Assembly: GCA_030699905.1 (NCBI GenBank)
Contig: JAUYKQ010000010.1
Span: forward strand, 2,554 to 66,553
DNA length: 64,000 nucleotides
Reading direction: 5' to 3'
From: a bacterium
GTDB lineage: Bacteria > Patescibacteriota > Minisyncoccia > Phycocordibacterales > GCA-002787175
Under the pieces are notes generated by a model. The model searched no databases and was not told the origin of the DNA. It saw only the letters and a list, made by a program, of their open reading frames with translations. The translations under genes were made by a program, and so were the position numbers. Shown here piece after piece: positions 1-24,765 of the stretch. Position 1 is the first letter of the stretch; each line of letters opens with the position of its first letter.

Positions 1-938
1 AGCTGACTATATCGGTAGAATCCCAGGGAAGCGGATTATCGCGGATAAAAACGCAGATGAACGCTGATTGGGACAATACCGAGGGAAGATTTGTGTACTA
101 AATAGTGGGAAACAGGACAATGAATAAATTCCTTCTGGAACTGCGTGCGTTCGGATACGTTCGGCCGTACACCCTTAAATGGGAAGCATCCAGATGTTCC
201 GACTTGAATTTATTTAGGCATGAGTGCTGGTGCCATGCTGTCTTGATCGTTCATCGACCCACTAAGGAGGAATCACCACCCTGCGCAGTATATTCCTCCT
301 TCCTACTATTTAGTACATGAATCGCCCGTAGAGACTAAACGTCAGCCACCCTAAACAGCATGTGTTCGGGTGAAGCTATAGTCCGATCCTCTGAAGTAAT
401 TCAGAGAGACAGGCAGAAATGTCCTGTCCGCGTTTCAGATTCGGGTATGATTCGGGATCGTCTTGATTCGAGTCAATTCGGATTTGTTTACGGAGTAACA
501 AGATGCGTAAGACAGGTTGGTCTCCTATCTACTGCAGGCGTTGATTCTTGAAGGGAGTCATCCCTAGTACGAGAGGACCGGGATGAACTGACCTCTGGTC
601 TACCTGCTGTTCCCGCCAGGGGCAACGCAGGGTAGCTATGTTGGGAGTGGATAACTTCTGAAAGCATCTAAGAAGGAAGCCAACCCTAAGATTAGGAATC
701 GAGCGTGCGAAGCACGCAGTTCATCAAGTTGAAAGTTCATAAAGTTGTAAAGTTTATAAAGTAAAAACAAAATTTTCTGTTCTTACTTGATAAACTTGAT
801 AAACTTTTTACTTTACAAACTTGTGATTTGCGCGCTTCGCGCGTGAAGGCCCGTGGCAGATGACCACGTTGATAGGCACCAGGTGTAAGCGTCGTAAGGC
901 GTTCAGCCGAGGTGTACTAATTCGCCGATTCTATTAGG
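1..938 (+). rRNA. rrl: 23S rRNA, 3' portion (partial at window start). Positions 1-~480 are the 3' part of a group I intron (R-like element cccgtagagactaaacgtc at ~336-352, S-like gaagctatagtcc at ~375-388). Mature 23S sequence resumes by ~500; helix 98 carries a 140-nt insertion (703-843).
   Basis: Sarcin-ricin loop agtacgagaggaccgg at ~560-575. ctgaaagcatctaag and the 3'-terminal gttgataggc...gtaagcg...gtactaat match the conserved 23S domain VI. Positions 1-480 lack the conserved peptidyl transferase centre motifs and contain group I P7-like elements. Confidence 0.8.
703..843 (+). repeat. Hairpin insertion module in 23S H98. GC-clamp mini-hairpins gcgtGCGAAGCacgc and gcgcGCTTCGCgcg flank an AT-rich imperfect palindrome built from ataaagt and gataaactt units.
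   Basis: Directly visible inverted symmetry. The same clamp pair flanks a module in 16S V3 (10861-11005), and a variant flanks one in 16S V1. Confidence 0.7.
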
Positions 939-3426: not shown

Positions 3427-4713
3427 TTACGCGTCGTACACGTTGACTGTTTTTATTAGCATTTCTTCAAATGAAAAGTCGGACATTATTTTTTCTTTGA
3501 GTTTGGCGCCAAACTGTTTTCTGTGGTTTTTACGAAGTATCAGGAATTTAATGGCGCTCCTTAACTCTTCGGCCGATTCCGGCCTTACTAAAATTCCAGA
3601 TTCCATGTCAGTGATTATTTCCGGTATTCCGCCGACACTTGAAGCCACTACCGGCAGACCGGCGGCTCCCGCTTCCAAAACGGCGTAAGGCAGACCTTCT
3701 TTTAGGGAAGGGAACAAGAACAAATCAAGTCCTTTCAAGAAGACAGACGCCTCTTCCATATGACCCTTGAATTTGACGCTGTCTTGAATTTCGTACTTTA
3801 AAACCTGACTTTCCAGATTCTGTCTTTCTTCTCCTTCGCCTACCACGACCAAGACAAAATGTTTATAAGGCAATCCATACAGTTCTTTGTCTTTTAAAAT
3901 GTCGGCAAAGGCCTTTATCGCAAAAAACAGGCCTTTGTTTTTATGAAGTTCTCCAAGAGTTCCTATCATGAATGTTTCTTTGCCGTGTTTGTCATCCGAC
4001 ATTTCTTCTCTGGATTCGGACATTTTTTTGAATTTTTGAGGTCTGACGCCGTTTCTTATGAGGGTGATTTTGTCTTTGGATGTTAAGAAGCAAGGGGAAA
4101 GGTTCTCGTCATCCTTGGAAACGGCAATAACTCGGTCGGAGAAAAACACTGAAAGCCAAGATCCAAAAAACGATACGGCGCGAAAAAAGATGCCCCGTTT
4201 TTCTTTAAATGGCCAGCCGTGAACAGTGAATACGACTCGCGCGGAACTCGCCGTTTGGCTGTCCGTGTTCAAAAATGGAATATGGGAAACAAAATTTGTT
4301 AAAAAAGATGCTAAAGAGCCGAGGAATGCCGCCTTGGGACTGTTTAAATGTATAATGTCAGGCCTTTCTTTTCTTAGGATTTTTACAAGTTCCCAGAGTG
4401 ATTTAAATTCTCCCAGAAAAAAAATTTCCCGCGTAAAAGTTTTGACAAAAACAGTCCTGACTTTTTTTAGGGAAAGTTTTCTCGCAAGCTCTCCGGGTGC
4501 GCTTCCCATGGCACCCGTCCCGCCAAGCACTACCACGTTTTCGTATTTTTCCTTTGGCAGGGAAGTCGCCAAGTCATAAACGTATCTTTGAGCTCCTCCC
4601 CAGTTGCTTTTGGTTATCACAAAAAGCACTTTCTTTTTCAGCACCGGTTCCATGTCTGTATTATATTTCTTTTTTTGGTTTTCCGCCATAAAACTGGAAA
4701 TTGCGCGCCCCAT
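3427..4713 (-). CDS. Glycosyltransferase family 4 (GT-B, group 1). Start may instead be MAENQ (4689) or MEPV (4653).
   Basis: C-terminal EX7E-type motif EGLPYAVLEAGAAGLPVVASSVGGIPEII. Confidence 0.75.
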   Translation of the reverse strand: MGRAISSFMAENQKKKYNTDMEPVLKKKVLFVITKSNWGGAQRYVYDLATSLPKEKYENVVVLGGTGAMGSAPGELARKLSLKKVRTVFVKTFTREIFFLGEFKSLWELVKILRKERPDIIHLNSPKAAFLGSLASFLTNFVSHIPFLNTDSQTASSARVVFTVHGWPFKEKRGIFFRAVSFFGSWLSVFFSDRVIAVSKDDENLSPCFLTSKDKITLIRNGVRPQKFKKMSESREEMSDDKHGKETFMIGTLGELHKNKGLFFAIKAFADILKDKELYGLPYKHFVLVVVGEGEERQNLESQVLKYEIQDSVKFKGHMEEASVFLKGLDLFLFPSLKEGLPYAVLEAGAAGLPVVASSVGGIPEIITDMESGILVRPESAEELRSAIKFLILRKNHRKQFGAKLKEKIMSDFSFEEMLIKTVNVYDA

Positions 4714-7517: not shown

Positions 7518-8801
7518 ATGCTTAAGCACAGAATATGGGCCGTCATAATTTTACTTGCCGCTGTCGGTTTGGGTTTTTTTGTTTTCTCGTCCGAGAAAAA
7601 CAAAACCGATTTCGCTTTTGAATACGGTCTGGACCTTACCGGCGGTACCCATCTTGTTTATAAAGCTCAAACTCAAGAAATTCCTTCCGGTGAACGAGAT
7701 GAGGCGATGCGCTCCCTTCGCGATGTTATTGAAAGGCGTGTCAATCTTTTTGGCGTTTCAGAGCCAATTGTCCAGGTTGAAAAGAGCATTCTCCAAGACG
7801 ATGACCGTCTGATAGTGGAGTTGCCGGGAGTCACAGACGTTGAAGAGGCCGTAAAAAGGATAGGCCAAACGCCGGTTTTGGAATTCCGACTCGGTCTTGA
7901 TATTTCGGATTTCACCGAAGAAGAAATATCCGCTTTAACTGGCGAAGATTTCTGGCAGTACACGGGTCTTACCGGCCGTCTTGTAAAGAGAGCTCAAGTT
8001 TCTTTTGAGGGTGGAGCCACGGGAGTGGCCGAGCCCGCTGTGCTTTTGACCTTCAATGATGAAGGTGCGGAGCTTTTCGCGAGCATTACCAGAGACAATA
8101 CCGGCCAGGTTTTAGGCATATTTCTTGATGGGATACTGATATCGGATCCGGTAATACGGGAAGAGATTCCTACCGGTACTGCCGTTATCTCCGGCAATTT
8201 CAACGCCCAAGATGCCCGTGAGCTTGTTCGAGACCTGAATTTCGGCGCCTTGCCTGTTCCTGTTGAACTCATCTCCACAGAGTCCATCGGCCCCACTCTC
8301 GGTAAAGAGGCCTTACAAAAAGGGCTTAAGGCCGGAGCCGCGGGGCTCTTCCTTGTGGTCGTGTTCATGCTTCTCTGGTACCGTTTGCCCGGTTTAGTCG
8401 CTGTTTTGTCTTTATCTGTTTATCTGGTGTTGATGCTCGCGGTATTCAAGCTCGTGCCGGTTGTTCTTACGGCAGCCGGAGTCGCGGGATTCATAATTTC
8501 AATAGGAATGGCGGTGGACGCCAACATTCTGATTTTTGAACGTCTGAAAGAAGAAATACGCGAAGGCAAGACCGGAGCCGAAGCGGTGCATAGCGCTTTT
8601 AAACGCGCGTGGCTCGCTATTCGTGATGGGAATCTGACCAGCATTCTTACCGCCATCGTGCTTTTTTACGCAGGCACTTTTCTTACACAAAGCTTTGCCT
8701 TAACATTTGGCATGGGTGTTTTGCTTAGCATGCTGACGGCGGTAACCATAACGAGGACATTTCTTTTGGCAATAGTTCGCAAATCTTATTCGGGTAATTA
8801 G
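7518..8801 (+). CDS. secD: Protein translocase subunit SecD.
   Basis: N-terminal TM, large periplasmic domain, C-terminal 5-TM SecD/SecF domain (LAVLSLSVYLVLMLAVFKLVPVVLTAAGVAGFIISIGMAVDANILIFERLKEE). Confidence 0.9.
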   Translation: MLKHRIWAVIILLAAVGLGFFVFSSEKNKTDFAFEYGLDLTGGTHLVYKAQTQEIPSGERDEAMRSLRDVIERRVNLFGVSEPIVQVEKSILQDDDRLIVELPGVTDVEEAVKRIGQTPVLEFRLGLDISDFTEEEISALTGEDFWQYTGLTGRLVKRAQVSFEGGATGVAEPAVLLTFNDEGAELFASITRDNTGQVLGIFLDGILISDPVIREEIPTGTAVISGNFNAQDARELVRDLNFGALPVPVELISTESIGPTLGKEALQKGLKAGAAGLFLVVVFMLLWYRLPGLVAVLSLSVYLVLMLAVFKLVPVVLTAAGVAGFIISIGMAVDANILIFERLKEEIREGKTGAEAVHSAFKRAWLAIRDGNLTSILTAIVLFYAGTFLTQSFALTFGMGVLLSMLTAVTITRTFLLAIVRKSYSGN

Positions 8802-8830
8802 AGTTTTTAAATTCGGGACTGATTAGAGAT

Positions 8831-9769
8831 ATGACTATTATAAAATACAAAAAAATATTCTTTATCGTTACGGCTATTTTCATAGTGGCCGCCATCGCGT
8901 CTATTTCCTTCTTTGGTCTTTCCGTGAGCATTGATTTTACCGGTGGATCCATATTTGAAATAAACTACTCGGCAGAAAGGCCGACAAAAGCGGCGCTTGA
9001 GGAAAGGTTAAGTGGGGAAGGGATAAACGGCTTTTCCGTCCGTCCTTTGGGAGATAGAGGTTTTATCATACGCACGCCCGAGGCGGGGGACGACGAGAGA
9101 GCAAAGGTAGCAAGCGCGATATCTTGGGAAAGTTACGAGTCGTCAATAGACCGTTTCAGCTCTATCGGTCCGACCGTCGGCAGTGAACTGAAAACCAAGG
9201 CCCTTATCGCCATCATCGTTGTTCTTTTGATTATAATTTTCTACATTGCCTACACTTTCAGAAAAGTCGGCGGAGAAAAAGACAGCGTTTCGGCAAGGAC
9301 GGAAGTGGAAACGTTGCCTTCTTCTTTGAAATACGGACTTACCGCCATAATAACTTTAGGACACGACATTATCGTGCCAGCGGGAGCTTTTGCCGTTTAC
9401 GGGTATTTTACAGGCGCTCAAGCAGATGTTCTTTTTGTCATGGCGCTTCTTGCCATACTCGGTTATTCCGTCAATGACACCATAGTCATTTTTGACCGCG
9501 TACGAGAGAATCTTCTCAATAACAAAAAAGATAACCACAAAGAAACATTTGACGAAACGGTCGGCAAAAGCTTGTCTCAAACATACGCTCGTTCCATAAA
9601 CACTTCTCTGACCACTCTTTTTGTTCTCATAACTCTGTTTTTTATCGGTAGCGAAACAACCGCCGCCTTTGCCTTTACTTTGCTTGTTGGCGTCATCGCC
9701 GGCTCGTACTCGTCCATCTGTTTCGCCGCGCCGCTTCTTACGTCGTTCGCGAAAAAAACCCATAATTAA
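8831..9769 (+). CDS. secF: Protein translocase subunit SecF.
   Basis: SecF architecture and motifs (DFTGG..., ITLGHDIIVPAGAFA, DTIVIFDRVRENL). Confidence 0.9.
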   Translation: MTIIKYKKIFFIVTAIFIVAAIASISFFGLSVSIDFTGGSIFEINYSAERPTKAALEERLSGEGINGFSVRPLGDRGFIIRTPEAGDDERAKVASAISWESYESSIDRFSSIGPTVGSELKTKALIAIIVVLLIIIFYIAYTFRKVGGEKDSVSARTEVETLPSSLKYGLTAIITLGHDIIVPAGAFAVYGYFTGAQADVLFVMALLAILGYSVNDTIVIFDRVRENLLNNKKDNHKETFDETVGKSLSQTYARSINTSLTTLFVLITLFFIGSETTAAFAFTLLVGVIAGSYSSICFAAPLLTSFAKKTHN

Positions 9770-9847: not shown

Positions 9848-11675
9848 AGCCGATACTGCCTTCAAAGGAGAAGGTGTGGACTTTGACAATTAAAACTTGA
9901 AATATTAAAGATTTGAGACGTGCAAGGTCTCAAAGTCTATTCCTTCCCGGCAGTAGAGAATTAAAAATTTTCACTGCGGGAAAAAAATGATTCCACCGGC
10001 TGACTAAGACAGCCGGCAGAGCAAGTTCAAACTCTTAAAACAACAAACAAAATTTCAGCAAAAACTGTCTTTTGTTTTGTTCCGTTCTAAAAATGCAGAC
10101 AAGATGCAAACAAAACTCCGGCGGACGAGGGAGGCAACTCCTCCGTAGGTCGGAGCGATGTAGGCAATAATGTCCTCATTTCTTAAATTAGAGTTTGATC
10201 CTAGCTCAGGATGAACGCTGGCGGCGTGGATAAGGCATGCAAGTCAAGGGTGTGTGCGGAGCACACAGTTTATAAAGTTATAAAGTCATAAAGTTCATAA
10301 AGTCAGAATCTTCTGCTTTACAAACTTTTTACTTTACGAACTTGTAACTTGTGCGCTTCGCGCACAACCGGCAGACGAGGTAGTAATAAGTAGGAATGTC
10401 CCCAAGAGTCAGGCATAGCTACGCGAAAGCGTGGGTAATTCCTGATGGTCTGACCGCATCACATGGAATGTGAATTAAGTTTATCAAGTTCATAAAGTTG
10501 CAAGTTTATAAAGTAAGACCAATGCCGGATTTTTTAGGCTCGCTTTTCTTACTTGATGAACTTTATAACTTTTTACTTTATAAACTTATTTCGCCTCTCA
10601 TGTGATGCGGTCAGTAAAGTCGCAAGACGCTTTTGGAACAGCCTACTCGGTATCAGCTAGATGGTAGGGTAATGGCCTACCATGGCTATGACGCCTAGGG
10701 GGGGTGAGAGCCCGATCCCCACCGATCGGACTGAGATACGGCCGATACACCTACGGGTGGCTGCAGCCGAGAATATTCCGCAATGGGCGAAAGCCTGACG
10801 GAGCGACGCCGCGTGGTTGATGAAGTTCTTAGGAATGTAAAAACCTTTTATTAGGGAGGAAGCGTGCGAAGCACACTGTACATGACACTGATGACACGAA
10901 TGTAAAGAACGAATGACACGAATAAAATTAACAAGACTTGATTTTATTCGTGTCATTCGCATCTTCTATTCGTAGATTCGTGTCGAGTTCAGCGCGCTTC
11001 GCGCGTTTGACGTTACCTGATGAATAAGGGGTTGCTAAACTCGTGCCAGCAGCAGCGGTAATACGAGTGCCCCGAGCGTTATCCGGAATCATTGGGCGTA
11101 AAGGGTGTGTAGGCGGCTTTGTTAGTCCTCTGTTAAATTCTTCGGCTCAACCGGGGTCTTGCAGGGGATACGGCAAAGCTTGAGGGTGTGAGGGGTGAAT
11201 GGAACTCATGGTGTAGGGGTGAAATCCGTTGATATCATGGGGAACACCAAAAGCGAAGGCAATTCACTGGCGCACTCCTGACGCTGAAACACGAAAGCGT
11301 GGGTAGCGAATGGGATTAGATAATCCTTGCCCGCTAATAAAACATAGGCAAAAGGTGTCTCTCCCGAAGGCGACTTCGGGATGAAAATCTAGCTGTATCG
11401 GGGAAACTCTCTGACACTATGCGCTTACTGGCGCGTTGGAGACAATCCCGAGGGAAGTTTTCTTGCATTGAAAGAAGGTTAATTTACCTGCATTGTAATT
11501 CTTGGAGCAATGCTGGTGCGAGTAAGGGAAAAGAAAAACAACTGTCCATAGTCGGAGGGTTGGGTGTTGCGGGGCTATCTGCACATCTCTTTGTCCAGGA
11601 AAAACCACCAACAGAAAGCGTGAGTAATTCGTGAAAGCGTGAATATGTGTCCCTTACTCAATTTGTTCTTTGGGC

Positions 11676-11754
11676 GCGGATGTAGCTCAGTTGGAATGAG
11701 TATCACCTTGATAAGGTGAGGGTCGCAGGGTTCGAATCCTTGCCATCCGCTCCA
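11676..11754 (+). tRNA. tRNA-Ile(GAU)-like sequence embedded in the 5' half of the 16S site-788 intron. Cloverleaf with a slightly long variable/T region; may be a functional tRNA, a pseudo-tRNA or a tRNA-like intron domain.
   Basis: Acceptor gcggatg/catccgc, D-arm gctcagttggaatgagt, anticodon stem tcacc/ggtga with loop ttGATaa, T-loop ggttcgaatcc, 3' tcca. ~70% identical to bacterial tRNA-Ile(GAU). Confidence 0.55.
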
Positions 11755-11871
11755 TTTTTCCGCCGAATTTTCGAAAAATTTGGCACCTTCTTTCAGTGCA
11801 AGACGACCCCGTAGAGACTATGAAATTGAGCAAGATAGTTGGTGCATTTTCTGTCGTAATGCAAAAAATAT

Positions 11872-12639
11872 ATGCAAAACGCGGATTCAAAATATGTGCC
11901 TTTGTCGAATCAAGTGCGAGCCATTATTCTAGGGTCAATTCTTGGAGATGGGTCGCTCAAGATTCAAAACGAGTACGCCAATGCGAATTTACAAATTCGT
12001 CATTCGGAAACTCAAAAAGACTATCTCTTATGGAAAGCGAATGTGCTTAAAGAGATAGCCGGAGATGGTAGTGTGAGCGTGCAAAAGCCGGATGGATACA
12101 GTACGAAGCCAAAGTGGAGGTTCAGGAGCAAGAGAACTCCAGCATTGACCGAACTGCATCATTTGACCTATAAGCACAATGCCTTGCGCATCAGGCGCAC
12201 ATGGTTAAATCAAATGAACGCTTTGTCGCTCGCCGTATGGTGGTGCGATGACGGTTCACTTATTGGCTACGGAGGCAGAAAAGGGGTGTTTTGTACCGAC
12301 GGCTTTGATGAAGAGTCAGTCAAAATACTTGCTCGCTATCTTGGAGTGGTTTGGAACATACGAGCGATAGTTGCTCCTGTCGGGCGAAAGCGCGATGGAA
12401 AGCAAGATCAGTATTGGCGGTTATGGATTCGTTCGCAGGAAGAATTGAAGAAATTTCTGCGTATTATCCTGCCGTACATACCTGTTTCGAGTATGCTCAA
12501 AAAAGCCATTCTACTCTATAAAGACCCTCAATTTCAACAACGCTGGATATCTGAAGTAATCAAGCTAAGTCCTTTTCCAGAATCTGTCATACTGGCGGAA
12601 TTTGAAAAAAAGAAAGCTAAATGGAATTGCTACAGATAA
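11872..12639 (+). CDS. LAGLIDADG homing endonuclease, double-motif, intron-encoded.
   Basis: Motifs LGSILGDGSL and LAVWWCDDGSL. Located inside the 16S intron. Confidence 0.85.
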   Translation: MQNADSKYVPLSNQVRAIILGSILGDGSLKIQNEYANANLQIRHSETQKDYLLWKANVLKEIAGDGSVSVQKPDGYSTKPKWRFRSKRTPALTELHHLTYKHNALRIRRTWLNQMNALSLAVWWCDDGSLIGYGGRKGVFCTDGFDEESVKILARYLGVVWNIRAIVAPVGRKRDGKQDQYWRLWIRSQEELKKFLRIILPYIPVSSMLKKAILLYKDPQFQQRWISEVIKLSPFPESVILAEFEKKKAKWNCYR

Positions 12640-12818
12640 AGATATAGTCCGGACTGCATGGAAACATGTAGAGCGAGGCAGAAATGCCCTCGCCTCCGCA
12701 TCAGGCGGAAGTAACATTTTCAACCCCAGTAGTCCACGCCCTAAACGATGTTCATTTGCTTTTCGGAGTATCGACCCTCTGAGAGGCGTAGCTAACGCGT
12801 TAAATGAACCGCCTGGGT

Positions 12819-12850
<32 letters not shown>

Positions 12851-13267
12851 AGACGGGGACTTGCACAAGCGGTGGATCATGTGGTTTAATTCGATACTAA
12901 ACGAAGAACCTTACCAAGCCTAGACATCCAAGGGAACTCCAGTAGAAATATTGGAGGCCACCACTTTGCGCGGAAGACGCAAAGTGAGTTCGTCAAGTTA
13001 TAAAGTATAAAGTTCATCAAGTTAGAGAATGTCTTACTTGATAAACTTTAAGAACTTTTGACTTGATAAACTTACTTTGTTCGCTTGCGAACAAAGTGCG
13101 GGGAGGAAGGCGAGGATGACGCCAGATCAGCATGACCCTTTGACGGCTTGGGCTACACACGTGATACAATGGCTGTTACAACACGTTTGCGACGGAGTAA
13201 TCCTGAGCTAATCGTTATAAAAGCAGCCCCAGTTCGGATTGAGGTCTGCAACTCGACCTCATGAAGT

Positions 13268-13314
<47 letters not shown>

Positions 13315-13322
13315 TCAAGTCT

Positions 13323-14262
13323 TGTACTCGGGTCGCCATGCGATCGAGTACGCTAGTTGGTGACCCGTCCTTCGTTAAAATTACGGAGGGCACGGTCCAG
13401 CTGTAATTTTTGAGCTTAATTAAATAAAAACCCCTGCTTATTTTATAAGGGGGGTTTAGGATCTAGAACTCTGAAAGCTGTTGTTGCGAGTTTCTATCTC
13501 TATTCTGCGGGACCGGCGTTGGATCTATTCAAACCAACCGCTTTCGCTTTTGGGGACTGATTTCGAACATTCTTCCAGAACTCCCTGACAAGATCCCTAA
13601 TTAATTAGGTCAGGACTATGTTACATGTTATCATATCTTGTGTTATCAGTCAAGAGCTTGAAAATTACAGCTGGACACGTTTTCGCTGAAGCTATAGCGA
13701 GGCGAGGAAATCCAACCAAGACAATTCACAGTGTCTTGAAGCGAAATACTAGTCTACTGTCCGCGAGGACTATAGATGAAGGAGTAAAGTAGCATTTCTT
13801 AGCTTGAATGCCAGTCATGGCGCATAACAGAGGTTATCCTGCGAGTACATGGAGAAACCTACTGTGTTACAAAAACTGTTATGCGTATCGTGGCATCGAG
13901 ATGAGAAAAAACAGTGTATTCGGTTACCGTGGGAGATCTCACTTGTTCTTTGTTTTTAAAGAGCAAAGTAAGCAATATATTAGGACGGGCAAAAATTTCC
14001 TAAAGTATTGATTAACAATAAGTGAGAAGTCTGCAGAGTCCGTAGTACCTATCGAAGTAAAATTTGATAGGGAAGGGACGAACTTAGAGGTTGTATGTAA
14101 TTTTTAATTTTGCATTGCTTGTCCCGTAGCGAGTTCTGCTCTGCTACAGGGATCATTTTGCATTTTGAGATTTGCATTTTAAATTTCTAAGAACCGCTAG
14201 GGTGCGGGAAAACCGCTTGCCCAGTGGTGTTTGGCTATTGAAAATAAATATCAATTGACCGA
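13323..14262 (+). other. ~940-nt ORF-less insertion in 16S near E. coli site ~1390, between cttgtac and accgcccgtca. Contains a long-range inverted repeat (13395-13411 / 13664-13680). Possibly a degenerate intron or other intervening sequence.
   Basis: Flanking conserved 16S segments gaatacgttctc...cttgtac and accgcccgtcaactcaagggagt. No ORF longer than 67 aa. Confidence 0.5.
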
Positions 14263-14353
14263 AAAACCGCCCGTCAACTCAAGGGAGTTGGGAATACCCG
14301 AAGCGCACGCTTTGCGTGCACTACGGTAAGCTCAATAACAGGGAGTAAGTCGT

Positions 14354-15287
14354 TATTGTAAAATACAATTGCGACCTGTCAAGGAAACTTGACAGAAAAA
14401 TCCAACTGAAATCGGTGAACCCCTCCTCTTTAATTTGTTATAATTAAAGGCATGAAGGCAATACCGAGGGAAGCTGGGAGAGTCACTTATTCAACGGAGA
14501 TTCGAAAGTTAAAAAATATTTCTTTTACCGAGGAGCAAAGAGCTCTCATTATTGGAAGTATTTTAGGCGACGGATGTCTGTGTGATAATTGGTCAAAGAC
14601 CAATTATCGTTTGTTTATCAATCATTGTCTGGGACAAAAAGATTACGTATGGTGGAAATACGGTGTTCTTAAGAATTATATCCTTTCAGAACCTAGATAC
14701 TATGATAGGAATAATTCCCTTACTATCCGGACCATTAGTCACTCTGAATTATCAGAATTGCGGAATGTTTTCTACAGAGATAAACAAAAAATAATTCCTC
14801 AAAATATTCAAGAATTTCTAAAGGATCCTCGCGTGCTTGCAGTATGGTTTATGGATGATGGTAACAATGTTATCCGGAATGGAAAAATTATTGGTTACCA
14901 CATCAACACACAATCATTCACACGAAAAGAAAATAAATTGCTTGCAAAATGTCTGTATGCCATTTACGGCATAGAAGCTCTGTTAGAACGAAATCATAAA
15001 AGGTATAGATTAGCAATTTGGAAGCGAGATTCGAGGTTGAAAATTAGAAACTTGGTAAAGCCGTATGTATTGGAAAGTATGCAATACAAACTCGGTTGAA
15101 TAAGCGACTCTCCTTAGCCCCGTAGAGACTGGATTCCGCTTAAAAGCGGATGAAGATAGCATGCACATAATGTGTCGCAGTGCCTCGACATTGCGATTAC
15201 GGTGCTATAAAACGTTGGCTCCATTGATAATTATCAATCGGATGAAGATATAGTCCATGCCCCAATGAAAATTGGGGAGAGAACATG
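14354..15287 (+). mobile_element. Group I intron at 16S site 1506 (between GUCGU and AACAAGG) with an internal homing endonuclease ORF. 5' exon ends in U; intron ends in G (omega G at 15287). R-like ccgtagagactgg ~15123-15136, S gaagatatagtcc ~15243-15256, P9-like hairpin ccccaatgaaaattgggg.
   Basis: Precise restoration of gtaagtcgt|aacaaggcacgggtagcggaagctgc (h45). Canonical P7 elements are present. Confidence 0.75.
14452..15099 (+). CDS. LAGLIDADG homing endonuclease, double-motif, intron-encoded.
   Basis: Motifs IIGSILGDGCL and LAVWFMDDGN. Confidence 0.85.
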   Translation: MKAIPREAGRVTYSTEIRKLKNISFTEEQRALIIGSILGDGCLCDNWSKTNYRLFINHCLGQKDYVWWKYGVLKNYILSEPRYYDRNNSLTIRTISHSELSELRNVFYRDKQKIIPQNIQEFLKDPRVLAVWFMDDGNNVIRNGKIIGYHINTQSFTRKENKLLAKCLYAIYGIEALLERNHKRYRLAIWKRDSRLKIRNLVKPYVLESMQYKLG

Positions 15288-15765
15288 AACAAGGCACGGG
15301 TAGCGGAAGCTGCTCGTGGAATATTTCAAGTGAACAATGTCAGGAGCGGATTATCGCGGATAAAAACGCTGATAGACGCCGATGACTGAACGAGTCGATA
15401 TCGCTATCTCTACGGAGTAAGCGGTGGATAAGATTAATATCCTAAAAAAAATCTGACAGACCGGAAAGACGGCACCCGCCGTATCACATGGAATGTGATA
15501 GCGGAAATCCAAAGCACGAAATACTAAATCCTAAACAATATCAAAATTCAAATGACAAAAATTCCAAACAGTAGTCTCTATTTTGAATTTAATATTTTGA
15601 TAATTTGAATTTGTTTCGGATTTCGGTATTAGAATTTCGGATTTTCCGCATCATCGTGTCTCATGTGATGCGGCGGTAAGGAACGGAACAAAACAAAGGA
15701 CAGAAGGTAAAAGAAATTTCAATTTCTAATTGTCTAATTCACATAGATGAAGACAAAGAAGGGTC

Positions 15766-15799
15766 AAAAAAACGGCTAAATATATTTAGCCGTTTTTTT
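15766..15799. terminator. Bidirectional rho-independent terminator: palindrome cggctaaata|tatttagccg flanked by A7 and T7.
   Basis: Perfect palindrome with flanking A/T runs. Confidence 0.6.
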
Positions 15800-15842
15800 G
15801 TTGCTATAGCGCGCTATTTTTGGTATATTTTCAGAGTAATTT

Positions 15843-15919
15843 GCGAGTGTAGCTCAGGTGGTTAGAGCACTCCACTGATAATGGAGAGGTCCCAAGTTCG
15901 AGTCTTGGCACTCGCACCA
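15843..15919 (+). tRNA. tRNA-Ile(GAU), with encoded CCA.
   Basis: gcgagtg ta gctc aggtggtta gagc a ctcca ctGATaa tggag aggtc ccaag ttcgagt cttgg cactcgc a cca: a canonical cloverleaf. Confidence 0.85.
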
Positions 15920-17027: not shown

Positions 17028-17102
17028 CTCTAATTTCTGCTCGAATCCTCTCGAATTCCGATTCGGGACGATTAGAGTTCTTAATTCGGGATTGATTAGA
17101 GA
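17028..17102. repeat. Intergenic repeat, family 'ctctaatc / attcgggatt / gattagag', copy 1.
   Basis: Shares 8-15-nt blocks with copies at 18893-19020, 20327-20412 and 24721-24765. Confidence 0.5.
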
Positions 17103-17104
17103 AA

Positions 17105-17272
17105 ATGAAATTAATTTGTATTGAATGCAAAAACGAAATTGATACGTCTCCGTATCCGAACTTGTCAAAAAACCAGACATTGGAATGCAACCACTGTGGC
17201 ATCTCTCTTCTGGTGTCTGACGTAAAAGACAGTGGGGAAGTGGAAGTGGAAATCGCCGATGAGGGTAAATAG
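17105..17272 (+). CDS. Small (55 aa) Cys4 zinc-ribbon protein (CxxC...CxxC) with an acidic C-terminal tail; LysW-like in organisation. Not in the ORF track (<60 aa).
   Basis: MKLICIECKNEIDTSPYPNLSKNQTLECNHCGISLLVSDVKDSGEVEVEIADEGK. Two CxxC pairs ~25 aa apart. Confidence 0.35.
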   Translation: MKLICIECKNEIDTSPYPNLSKNQTLECNHCGISLLVSDVKDSGEVEVEIADEGK

Positions 17273-18892: not shown

Positions 18893-19020
18893 TAATCTCT
18901 AATCAAACCCGAATTCTCTAATCAGACACGAATTAAAGTCGCGAATACTCCCTAATATCAGATTCGAGATTGATTCGGGATAAAATTCTTATTTTACTAT
19001 TCGGGTTTATTAGTGATAAT
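18893..19020. repeat. Intergenic repeat, family 'ctctaatc / attcggg', copy 2, immediately upstream of the murC-like gene.
   Basis: atctctaatcaaacccgaattctctaatcag...gattgattcggg. Confidence 0.5.
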
Positions 19021-20326: not shown

Positions 20327-20412
20327 TCTCTAATCAATCTCTAATTTTCATCTCAAATTTCCCGAATCCCTATTCGGGATTATTAGTGTTTAGATTTGGG
20401 ATTGATTGGTGA
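20327..20412. repeat. Intergenic repeat, family 'ctctaatc / attcgggatt', copy 3.
   Basis: gttctctaatcaatctctaat...cccgaatccctattcgggattattag...gggattgattgg. Confidence 0.5.
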
Positions 20413-24035: not shown

Positions 24036-24728
24036 ATGATGAAAAGTGATGGCATTTTATACGTTGTAGCCACTCCAATAGGTAATATGGAAGATATCAC
24101 CCTGCGCGCTTTGCGGACGCTTAAAGAGGCCGATATCATTCTCTGTGAAGACACCCGCGTAACGAAGCGGATTTTAGACAGGTACGAAATAAAAGATAAA
24201 AAGTTGTCCGTTTGGAACGAAGAGAGAAGTGGCGTATCTGCCGATAAAGTCACTGAATGGCTTGGAGAGGGGAAGAAGATCGCGCTTGTTACAGATGCTG
24301 GTACACCGGGAATTTCAGATCCGGGTGGAAAGCTTCTAATATCAATCAAGGAGAGCTTGCCTGAAGTTAAAATTGAGGCAATTCCCGGCCCAAGCGCACT
24401 TACATCTGCGCTTTCTGTCGCAGGTATTCCCCTGCACGATTTTGTTTTCCTGGGTTTTTTGCCTCACAAAAAGGGAAGGGAAACTATTTTTAAAGAAATT
24501 GCCACCGCAAAAAGGCCGTATGTTTTTTACGAGTCGCCGCATCGCATTTTAAAAGCCCTTGAGTCCCTTAAAAAGTTTTCGCCGGAGAAAAAAATTACCA
24601 TTTGTCGTGAGCTTACCAAAATCCACGAAGAAGTCGTATCCGGCACGGCTAACGAGCTTTTGGAGTATTTTGAAAATAACAAGGAAAAGGTAAGAGGGGA
24701 GTTTGTGGTAATAATATCGGATCTCTAA
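24036..24728 (+). CDS. rsmI: 16S rRNA (cytidine1402-2'-O)-methyltransferase RsmI.
   Basis: ILYVVATPIGNMEDITLRALRTLKEADIILCEDTRVTKRIL...VTDAGTPGISDPG: the tetrapyrrole-methylase-fold RsmI signature. Start at MMKSDG. Confidence 0.8.
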   Translation: MMKSDGILYVVATPIGNMEDITLRALRTLKEADIILCEDTRVTKRILDRYEIKDKKLSVWNEERSGVSADKVTEWLGEGKKIALVTDAGTPGISDPGGKLLISIKESLPEVKIEAIPGPSALTSALSVAGIPLHDFVFLGFLPHKKGRETIFKEIATAKRPYVFYESPHRILKALESLKKFSPEKKITICRELTKIHEEVVSGTANELLEYFENNKEKVRGEFVVIISDL

Positions 24729-24765
24729 TCAAATTCTAATTTTTCCTCGAATAATCACTAATAAA
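24721..24765. repeat. Intergenic repeat, family 'ctctaatc', copy 4.
   Basis: atctctaatcaaattctaatttttcctcgaataatcactaat. Confidence 0.4.

Follow-up and report, generated by a model that had tools for sequence, protein, structure and literature searches.

A gap in the conserved core of an insertion-rich 16S rRNA gene, probably an assembly or rare-variant artefact, and a family of rRNA hairpin modules

Layout of the 16S locus

In the window, by which we mean the whole 64-kb stretch of DNA analysed here, a 23S gene (3' end only) is accompanied by a 5S gene, and a single 16S gene, followed by a tRNA-Ile gene, lies about 9 kb further downstream (Table 1). Rfam, CM alignment and Pfam revealed that the 16S gene is interrupted by three large insertions, and the Rfam bacterial SSU model (SSU_rRNA_bacteria, RF00177) matched it at 10183-11392 and 12576-13354. 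No second SSU locus was detected in the 64-kb window by an Rfam scan at gathering thresholds. Exon 1 corresponds to model positions 1 to ~790 in a 646-bit match that itself contains inserts of 95, 144 and 132 nt, and the 5' domain, the central domain, the 530 loop and the 790 loop are all present. The 530 loop has the variant form GTGCCAGCAGCAGCGGTAATAC, which the window has in common with L007, one of the related loci described below.

A tRNA-Ile(GAU)-like gene is embedded in insertion 1, in addition to the regular tRNA-Ile gene downstream of the 16S. It scores 57.5 bits, has an encoded CCA and is followed by a T-run, and the introns homologous to insertion 1 in relatives do not contain the ~300 nt surrounding it (11476-11780). 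The window is matched at 100% identity by Logan contigs L001 and L002 over 11297-12750 and by Logan contig L022 over 14403-15306. Insertion 2 lies between CTTGTACTC and ACCGCCCGTCA; an insertion is found at the same ~1391 site in L003 (~8456-8860), L014 and L018 (~950-1263), and none in L007. In blastn comparisons, L007 was contiguous across the sites of both insertion 2 and insertion 3, and exon 3 aligned to its positions 4360-4446.

The overall organization resembles that of the intron- and insertion-rich 16S and 23S genes described for CPR bacteria (Brown et al. 2015, as reported in PMC9297842): the window gene likewise has helix-tip inserts as well as multiple large insertions, two with LAGLIDADG ORFs and one lacking an ORF but matching group II D1-D4, its lineage is of Parcubacteria type, and the rRNA genes are not linked to one another. 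In contrast to those genes, which keep a complete core once the insertions are removed, the assembled 16S of the window lacks ~125 nt.

Table 1. Coordinates of the features at the 16S locus and of related elements elsewhere in the window
Feature	Position	Strand	Basis or remark
16S exon 1 (E. coli ~1-790)	10183-11330	+	Rfam SSU_rRNA_bacteria, 646 bits; 3' boundary approximate
Helix-tip insertion of exon 1, h6	10246-10365		recurring insert design
Helix-tip insertion of exon 1, h9/h10	~10455-10610		recurring insert design
Helix-tip insertion of exon 1, h17	~10862-11005		recurring insert design
Insertion 1, group-I-like intron	11331-12725	+	boundaries approximate; weak group I match 12474-12671
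tRNA-Ile(GAU)-like gene embedded in insertion 1	11676-11754		tRNA calls
LAGLIDADG ORF of insertion 1	11872-12639	+	Pfam LAGLIDADG_2
16S exon 2, left part (E. coli ~795-1027)	12726-12961	+	CM alignment; ends at breakpoint
h32 5' strand, CCAAGCC	12914-12920	+	base-by-base reading
gacatcc	12923-12929	+	base-by-base reading
h33 5' strand, CCAAGGG	12928-12934	+	base-by-base reading
h33a, CTCCAGTAGAAATATTGGAG	12937-12956	+	base-by-base reading
G + CCAC (h33b start, GCCAC)	12957-12961	+	base-by-base reading
h40-type hairpin module	12962-13098	+	arm match to h40 inserts of relatives; rod fold; recurring insert design
16S exon 2, right part	13099-13337	+	CM alignment, high posterior probability; seven-sequence alignment
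h40 3' strand, CGGGG	13099-13103	+	directly 3' of module; then AGGAAGGCGAGGATGACG
GGAGGAAGGCGAGGATGACG	from 13102	+	base-by-base reading
h32 3' strand, GGCTTGG	13145-13151	+	
Insertion 2, ORF-less (E. coli ~1391)	13338-14263	+	group II D1-D4 match 14009-14078
16S exon 3, h44 with decoding-site sequences aaACCGCCCGTCA ... AAGTCGT	14264-14353	+	motif search, one mismatch at 14264
Insertion 3, group-I-like intron (E. coli ~1506)	14354-15287	+	weak group I match
LAGLIDADG ORF of insertion 3	14452-15099	+	Pfam
16S exon 4, h45	15288-15319	+	10-bp helix kept in 4/4 sequences, one compensatory pair
3' trailer	15320-15700	+	side-by-side trailers of window, L003, L007 and L011
Regular tRNA-Ile	15843-15919		
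Insert design, 23S H98 region	~700-850		recurring insert design
Insert design, 16S trailer	~15470-15690		recurring insert design
~22-nt motif	8808-8830		
~22-nt motif	17081-17105		
~22-nt motif	18896-18935	-	
~22-nt motif	20327-20350	-	
~22-nt motif	24722-24729	-	

Anatomy of the core gap

An earlier note, made by reading the sequence, had reported that the 16S gene lacks its core between gacatcc and the region after a hairpin module. Alignment to the Rfam SSU CM bore this out: the confident signal is lost across this interval, what aligns to model positions ~1000-1180 is an AT-rich hairpin with low posterior probability, and positions ~1030-1170 are without a counterpart. Up to the breakpoint, the left part of exon 2 contains the h27-h32 5' strands, the h33 5' strand, h33a and the first bases of h33b (GCCAC). 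Beyond the module, the right part contains the h40 3' strand, the h38/h34 3' strands, the h32 3' strand, h41-h43 and the h29/h28 3' strands. The missing ~125 nt comprise the 3' half of h33b, the h33 3' strand, the h34 5' strand, h35-h39 and the h40 5' strand, so that the core of the 3' major domain (both strands of h34, and h35-h40) is not complete in the 16S of the window. The gap is flanked by the lineage-specific sequences CCAAGCCTAGACATCCAAGGGAAC and GGCTTGGGCTACACACGTGATAC. The rRNA-like sequence between gacatcc and the module amounts to only ~32 nt, rather than the ~50 nt given in the note.

The conserved segment is missing from the entire window, as had been stated. Searches with GTCGTCAGCTCGTG gave only chance-level matches at up to three mismatches and those with GCAACGAGCGCAACCC gave none, and a blastn-short search with the 130-nt core of L007 returned no match above noise anywhere in the window.

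Comparison with related 16S loci

Nine comparison loci (L003, L007, L011-L014 and L018-L020), all Ca. Taylorbacteria-like, were reached through the LAGLIDADG protein of insertion 1, whose relatives at 90% identity or above reside in Candidatus Taylorbacteria 16S genes. The exons of the window are about 88-96% identical to those of the nine relatives, with 94-96% identity to L007 and L014 over the left part of exon 2 up to 12928. Every one of the nine has the core, which reads ...GTCGTCTCACAAGGACGGCTAGACAGGTGCTGCATGG..GTCGTCAGTTCGTGG...GGTAACGAACGCAACCC...GAC[AT]GCCCC[GC], and every one has one insertion in the h40 loop, closed by CCCC[GC]/[CG]GGGG. This insertion starts with CACTTTGCG in four genomes (L003, L007, L018 and L020) and ends with CAAAGTG in all three of them for which the right end was recovered.

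The hairpin module of the window corresponds closely to these h40 inserts. Its arm a agrees with the h40 arms of L003, L018 and L020 at 24 of 25 positions, its arm c is identical to that of L003, and its right junction, CAAAGTG followed by CGGGGAGGAAGG, has the same form as in the relatives. Since both the arms and the right junction match, the module appears to be the ancestral h40 insert and its right junction the original one. Its left flank, on the other hand, is h33b (GCCAC) without a partner strand. Judged from these alignments, it is the left junction that is the breakpoint, with the start of h33b joined to the first base of arm a. In L012 (~1950-2290) and L013, the h40 loop carries an insertion of ~400 nt in place of the hairpin module, and the h40 tip is a hot spot for differing inserts in this lineage.

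The module-arm pattern matched only Taylorbacteria-like genes with an intact core in JGI metagenomes, and two GTDB scans, one with the module arm and one with a lineage-specific h31/h32 word, gave no match. SecF, encoded directly upstream of the 16S gene, had no homologue above 60% identity in the collection searched; the nearest being 60% identical, close kin of the organism are evidently absent from that collection. Other assemblies of 12750-13340 were sought by way of spurious ORFs, and a concatenated peptide, two exact look-ups in insertion 2 and ten exact small ORFs all remained without a match.

Hairpin modules at rRNA helix tips

The h40 module spans 137 nt and consists of arm a (CACTTTGCGCGGAAGACGCAAAGTG), an AT-rich central hairpin and arm c (ACTTTGTTCGCTTGCGAACAAAGTG). 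In a minimum-free-energy fold it is predicted to form a single long rod (z-score -8.3). The word TAAAGTTCATCAAGTT has 16 matches against 1.35 expected, every one of them inside rRNA inserts, and its sites in the genome are h6, h9/h10 and h40 of the 16S, the 5S and the 23S. A recurring insert design, in which two short GC hairpins enclose a long AT-rich one, is seen at the sites marked in Table 1. Among the relatives, the arms of the h40 insert are conserved and the centre of the module is different in each genome, a combination that suggests a genome-specific mobile or homogenised hairpin.

The 5S gene is likewise enlarged. It measures 247 nt (1101-1347), only 1101-1219 of which are covered by Rfam, and the tip of its helix IV (loop D) is replaced by a module of ~140 nt (~1182-1322). 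This module has arms of the 16S h40 type and a centre that aligns as nearly identical to that of the 16S h40 module, with exact runs of up to 23 nt in common, and its predicted fold is again a single long rod (z-score -8.9). Most Parcubacteria are instead reported to be without 5S helix IV/loop D (PMC9297842). The 5S copy with its h40-type arms sets a precedent for the copying of a whole module to a new helix tip.

The rRNA IVS are helix-tip insertions that RNase III cuts out without religation, and examples include Salmonella 23S H25/H45 and the 16S IVS of some Campylobacter, Helicobacter and Clostridium. The modules of the window share with them a long, near-perfect duplex rod in the predicted fold that replaces a hairpin loop, as well as a location at solvent-exposed tips, here of the 16S, 23S and 5S. 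At h40, the loop has been exchanged for such a duplex: a CCCCG/CGGGG stem closes the module in the relatives, and both the h40 and the 5S rods fold at the strongly negative z-scores given above. Going by these folds, the rods look like RNase III (IVS-type) substrates. Unlike IVS, the modules are three-part, with conserved arms and a genome-specific centre, and occur in 5S rRNA too.

The 3' end of the 16S gene

As the earlier note had observed, the gene has no anti-SD tail: GATCACCTCCTT is absent near the gene within two mismatches, and 15320-15843 contains no CCTCC. Its description of the sequence after h45 as intron-like fared less well, as the same type of trailer follows h45 in L003, L007 and L011. 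In the window, the trailer runs from AAUAUUUCAAGUGAA through a variable hairpin with a 24-nt block, GAGUCGAU, CCUAAAA, CUGAC and GGAAAGAC to a three-part hairpin module. The three relatives have A[AG][CU]A[UA]UUCAA[GU]U at the same place after h45 and, downstream, GAGUCGAU, CUUAAA, CUGAC and GGAAAGAC. Because the trailer is present in L007, which is without the two 3' introns of the window, it represents a lineage feature and neither an intron nor a product of decay. Similarly, the missing anti-SD, which had been taken as a sign of decay, is a trait common to these three relatives. An intron after h45 with an anti-SD exon further downstream was also considered and rejected, given that there is no CCTCC before the tRNA, no intron match, and a trailer in L007.

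The 24-nt block that the note had found again in the 23S insertion is exactly duplicated, at 31-54 and 15346-15369. It is part of ~45 nt of similar sequence, lies in the variable hairpin of the 16S trailer and looks like a small hairpin element in two rRNA contexts. Between the trailer and the tRNA-Ile gene, a terminator-like hairpin is followed by a T-run (aaaaacggctaaatatatttagccgttttttt; 15750-15805).

SD-like 4-mers (GGAG, GAGG, AGGA) occur upstream of 4 of the 46 starts, compared with 13.5% at internal control codons. On this sequence evidence, the loss of the anti-SD is genuine: the lineage ends h45 with a non-CCUCC trailer and has no SD-led initiation. The anti-SD motif is present in only 48% of Parcubacteria 16S genes according to the available passages of Tsurumaki et al. 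2022 (PMC9297842), and the window resembles the Parcubacteria subgroup without it in having neither CCUCC after h45 nor SD enrichment. Beyond what those passages describe, its h45 is followed by the conserved trailer motifs UUCAAGUGAA, GAGUCGAU, CUGAC and GGAAAGAC. This part of the analysis therefore adds one more case to a published pattern, well documented by the 16S tail, the relatives and the upstream regions of genes.

The trailer sequence ATCTCTA (15408-15414) was evaluated as an alternative anti-SD for the upstream motif TAGAGAT and set aside: it belongs to the stem of the variable hairpin, about five genes have the motif, and the complementarity is probably coincidental. Separately, the end of a ~22-nt motif, TTAATTCGGGAYTGATTAGAGA(T/A), precedes several ATG starts by 2-5 nt (SecF, a Mur ligase and others; sites in Table 1), and ATTAGAGA has nine occurrences against 2.1 expected. 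The ~22-nt motif may function as a promoter or leader element, or as an alternative ribosome-binding element.

Integrity of the gene outside the gap

One explanation put forward in the earlier note was a nonfunctional or decaying rrs copy. The remainder of the gene speaks against it, being conserved outside the gap as in relatives, with compensatory changes and with the remaining functional centres present. Helix 32 covaries across the gap, reading CCAAGCC/GGCTTGG in the window versus CCAGGGT/ACCCTGG in the relatives; both flanks must therefore come from the same gene, and an inter-species chimera is ruled out. In a seven-sequence alignment, the predicted pairs of h41-h43 and their neighbours are kept at all but one or two positions, the exceptions being A-C at columns 34/52 and a G-C at 33/53 where most relatives have G-U. 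No damage is seen in h44 and h45, the h34 3' strand has stayed conserved in the absence of its partner, and the CM posterior probability is high outside the gap. Neither of the signs of a pseudogene, excess substitutions and broken helices outside the lesion, was found. The tRNA-Ile gene lies downstream of the 16S as in relatives, which is the ancestral arrangement, and CPR genomes are described as having basically one rRNA copy (PMC9297842).

Origin of the gap

Taken together, we consider the gap most likely to be an artefact of assembly or of a rare variant, and infer that it probably resides in the assembled sequence rather than in the working rRNA. Of the three explanations in the earlier note, mis-assembly thus fits best, because the breakpoint lies at the edge of a repeated module family and the lost segment is core sequence conserved across species; the decaying copy did not stand up, and of pieces encoded in trans the window contains none. 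A lethal deletion in the sole copy of the gene cannot be the majority genotype, and this, together with the undamaged remainder, favours a loss at the level of the assembly. The 16S would then probably be the organism's normal, intron-rich and single-copy CPR gene, and the reads of the organism would contain the core.

How the loss might have come about is suggested by the behaviour of other assemblies. The same strain is present in SRR13727534 and SRR26726065, and its Logan contigs stop at 12749/12750, where conserved exon sequence starts, which shows that assembly paths in these samples branch at conserved stretches of the 16S. The lost ~125 nt, as the most conserved part of the 16S, would be tangled with other species in the metagenome assembly graph, and the contig path would have led from h33b straight into the module and then into the h40 3' strand. 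Two routes could produce such a path. In route (a), a second module copy would sit in the h33b loop, and the resulting module-core-module loop would be traversed once. In route (b), a minority deletion or a chimeric junction would offer an unbranched shortcut past the tangle. Under an artefact, the true sequence would be expected to contain the joins CAAAGTG to GTGG...CCCTTGGACAGGTGCTGCATGG and ...GCCCCG to CACTTTGCGCGGAAGACG. Two observations count against route (a): none of the relatives has a module in h33b, and GCCAC is unlike the stems (CCCCG/CGGGG or CCGG/CCGG) by which the module is closed at its known sites in h40 and the 5S.

The arrangement resembles the repeat-mediated collapse or skipping known from short-read metagenome assemblies. 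A single repeat copy is left in the window, its left flank derives from the h33b site and its right flank from h40, giving the order h33b flank, h40-type module, h40 3' strand, and what has been lost is the stretch that other taxa share most. Unlike in a classical collapse, a second copy of the repeat is not observed here. It also counts against an artefact that the contig is exact wherever it can be checked, including 100% identity to the Logan contigs over two introns. Moreover, a de Bruijn assembler cannot invent the junction of GCCAC with CACTTTG, so some real or chimeric molecules carry it.

The necessary existence of that junction in some molecules is also what lends weight to a real deletion in the DNA, to which we assign a distinctly smaller but still appreciable chance. 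In this case, the window would represent a defective rrs allele or copy, either in part of the population or beside an intact second rrs. It would have arisen when two module copies recombined, or through a deletion associated with microhomology or with a hairpin. A very stable hairpin (z -8.3) does have one breakpoint at its base, where slippage or breakage is plausible, and an undecayed gene with an undecayed h34 3' strand would be expected if the event were very recent. However, the contig crosses the whole 5.7-kb gene into unique flanks, which is hard to achieve with short reads given a second, near-identical rrs; CPR genomes are usually single-copy (PMC9297842); and the ancestral tRNA-Ile is kept downstream. 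In a population with a single rrs, the lethal allele could not dominate.

Helix 34 is part of the A-site and of the head core and binds several head proteins. That the ribosome should truly do without h34-h40, as an extreme case of CPR reduction with the module as a substitute, is the reading we find hardest to credit. CPR rRNAs do lose surface helices, and the module, at 137 nt, is close in length to the lost ~125 nt; however, the losses reported (PMC9297842) concern the tips of surface helices, not core elements. Relatives at ~90% 16S identity keep h34 with a near-universal sequence, and in the window the orphaned h34 3' strand has remained conserved.

A functional split gene appears very unlikely as well; its h33b-h40 core would be encoded at another locus and would associate non-covalently with the rest of the 16S, and the module rod would help in processing or association. 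A split would account for the conserved partner strands of the missing helices (h34 3', h32, h40 3') and for the lack of any other sign of lost function in the gene, and the module would, by its predicted fold, make a good RNase III-type substrate. Yet an artefact would leave the partner strands just as conserved, the core is in cis in all relatives, and no core piece was found within the 64 kb by Rfam scan, motif search or blastn-short. Fragmented and scrambled rRNA genes do exist in organelles, for example in Chlamydomonas mitochondria, and the window gene is similar to them in having lost an internal segment while retaining its pairing partners. It differs in that no separate piece was found in the window, the setting is bacterial and the relatives are unfragmented. 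No bacterium is known to us in which an internal 16S segment has been relocated.

Implications

Until the reads have been checked, the 16S of the deposited MAG is best kept out of full-length reference sets, primer and probe design, and structure-based surveys of CPR rRNA reduction. Were the gap biological after all, then either a 16S could do without the h34 head core in cis, contrary to the accepted view, or this would be the first case of a bacterial 16S with an internal segment moved elsewhere. Regardless of the gap, the family of modules at many rRNA helix tips, the 5S included, offers the more interesting material.
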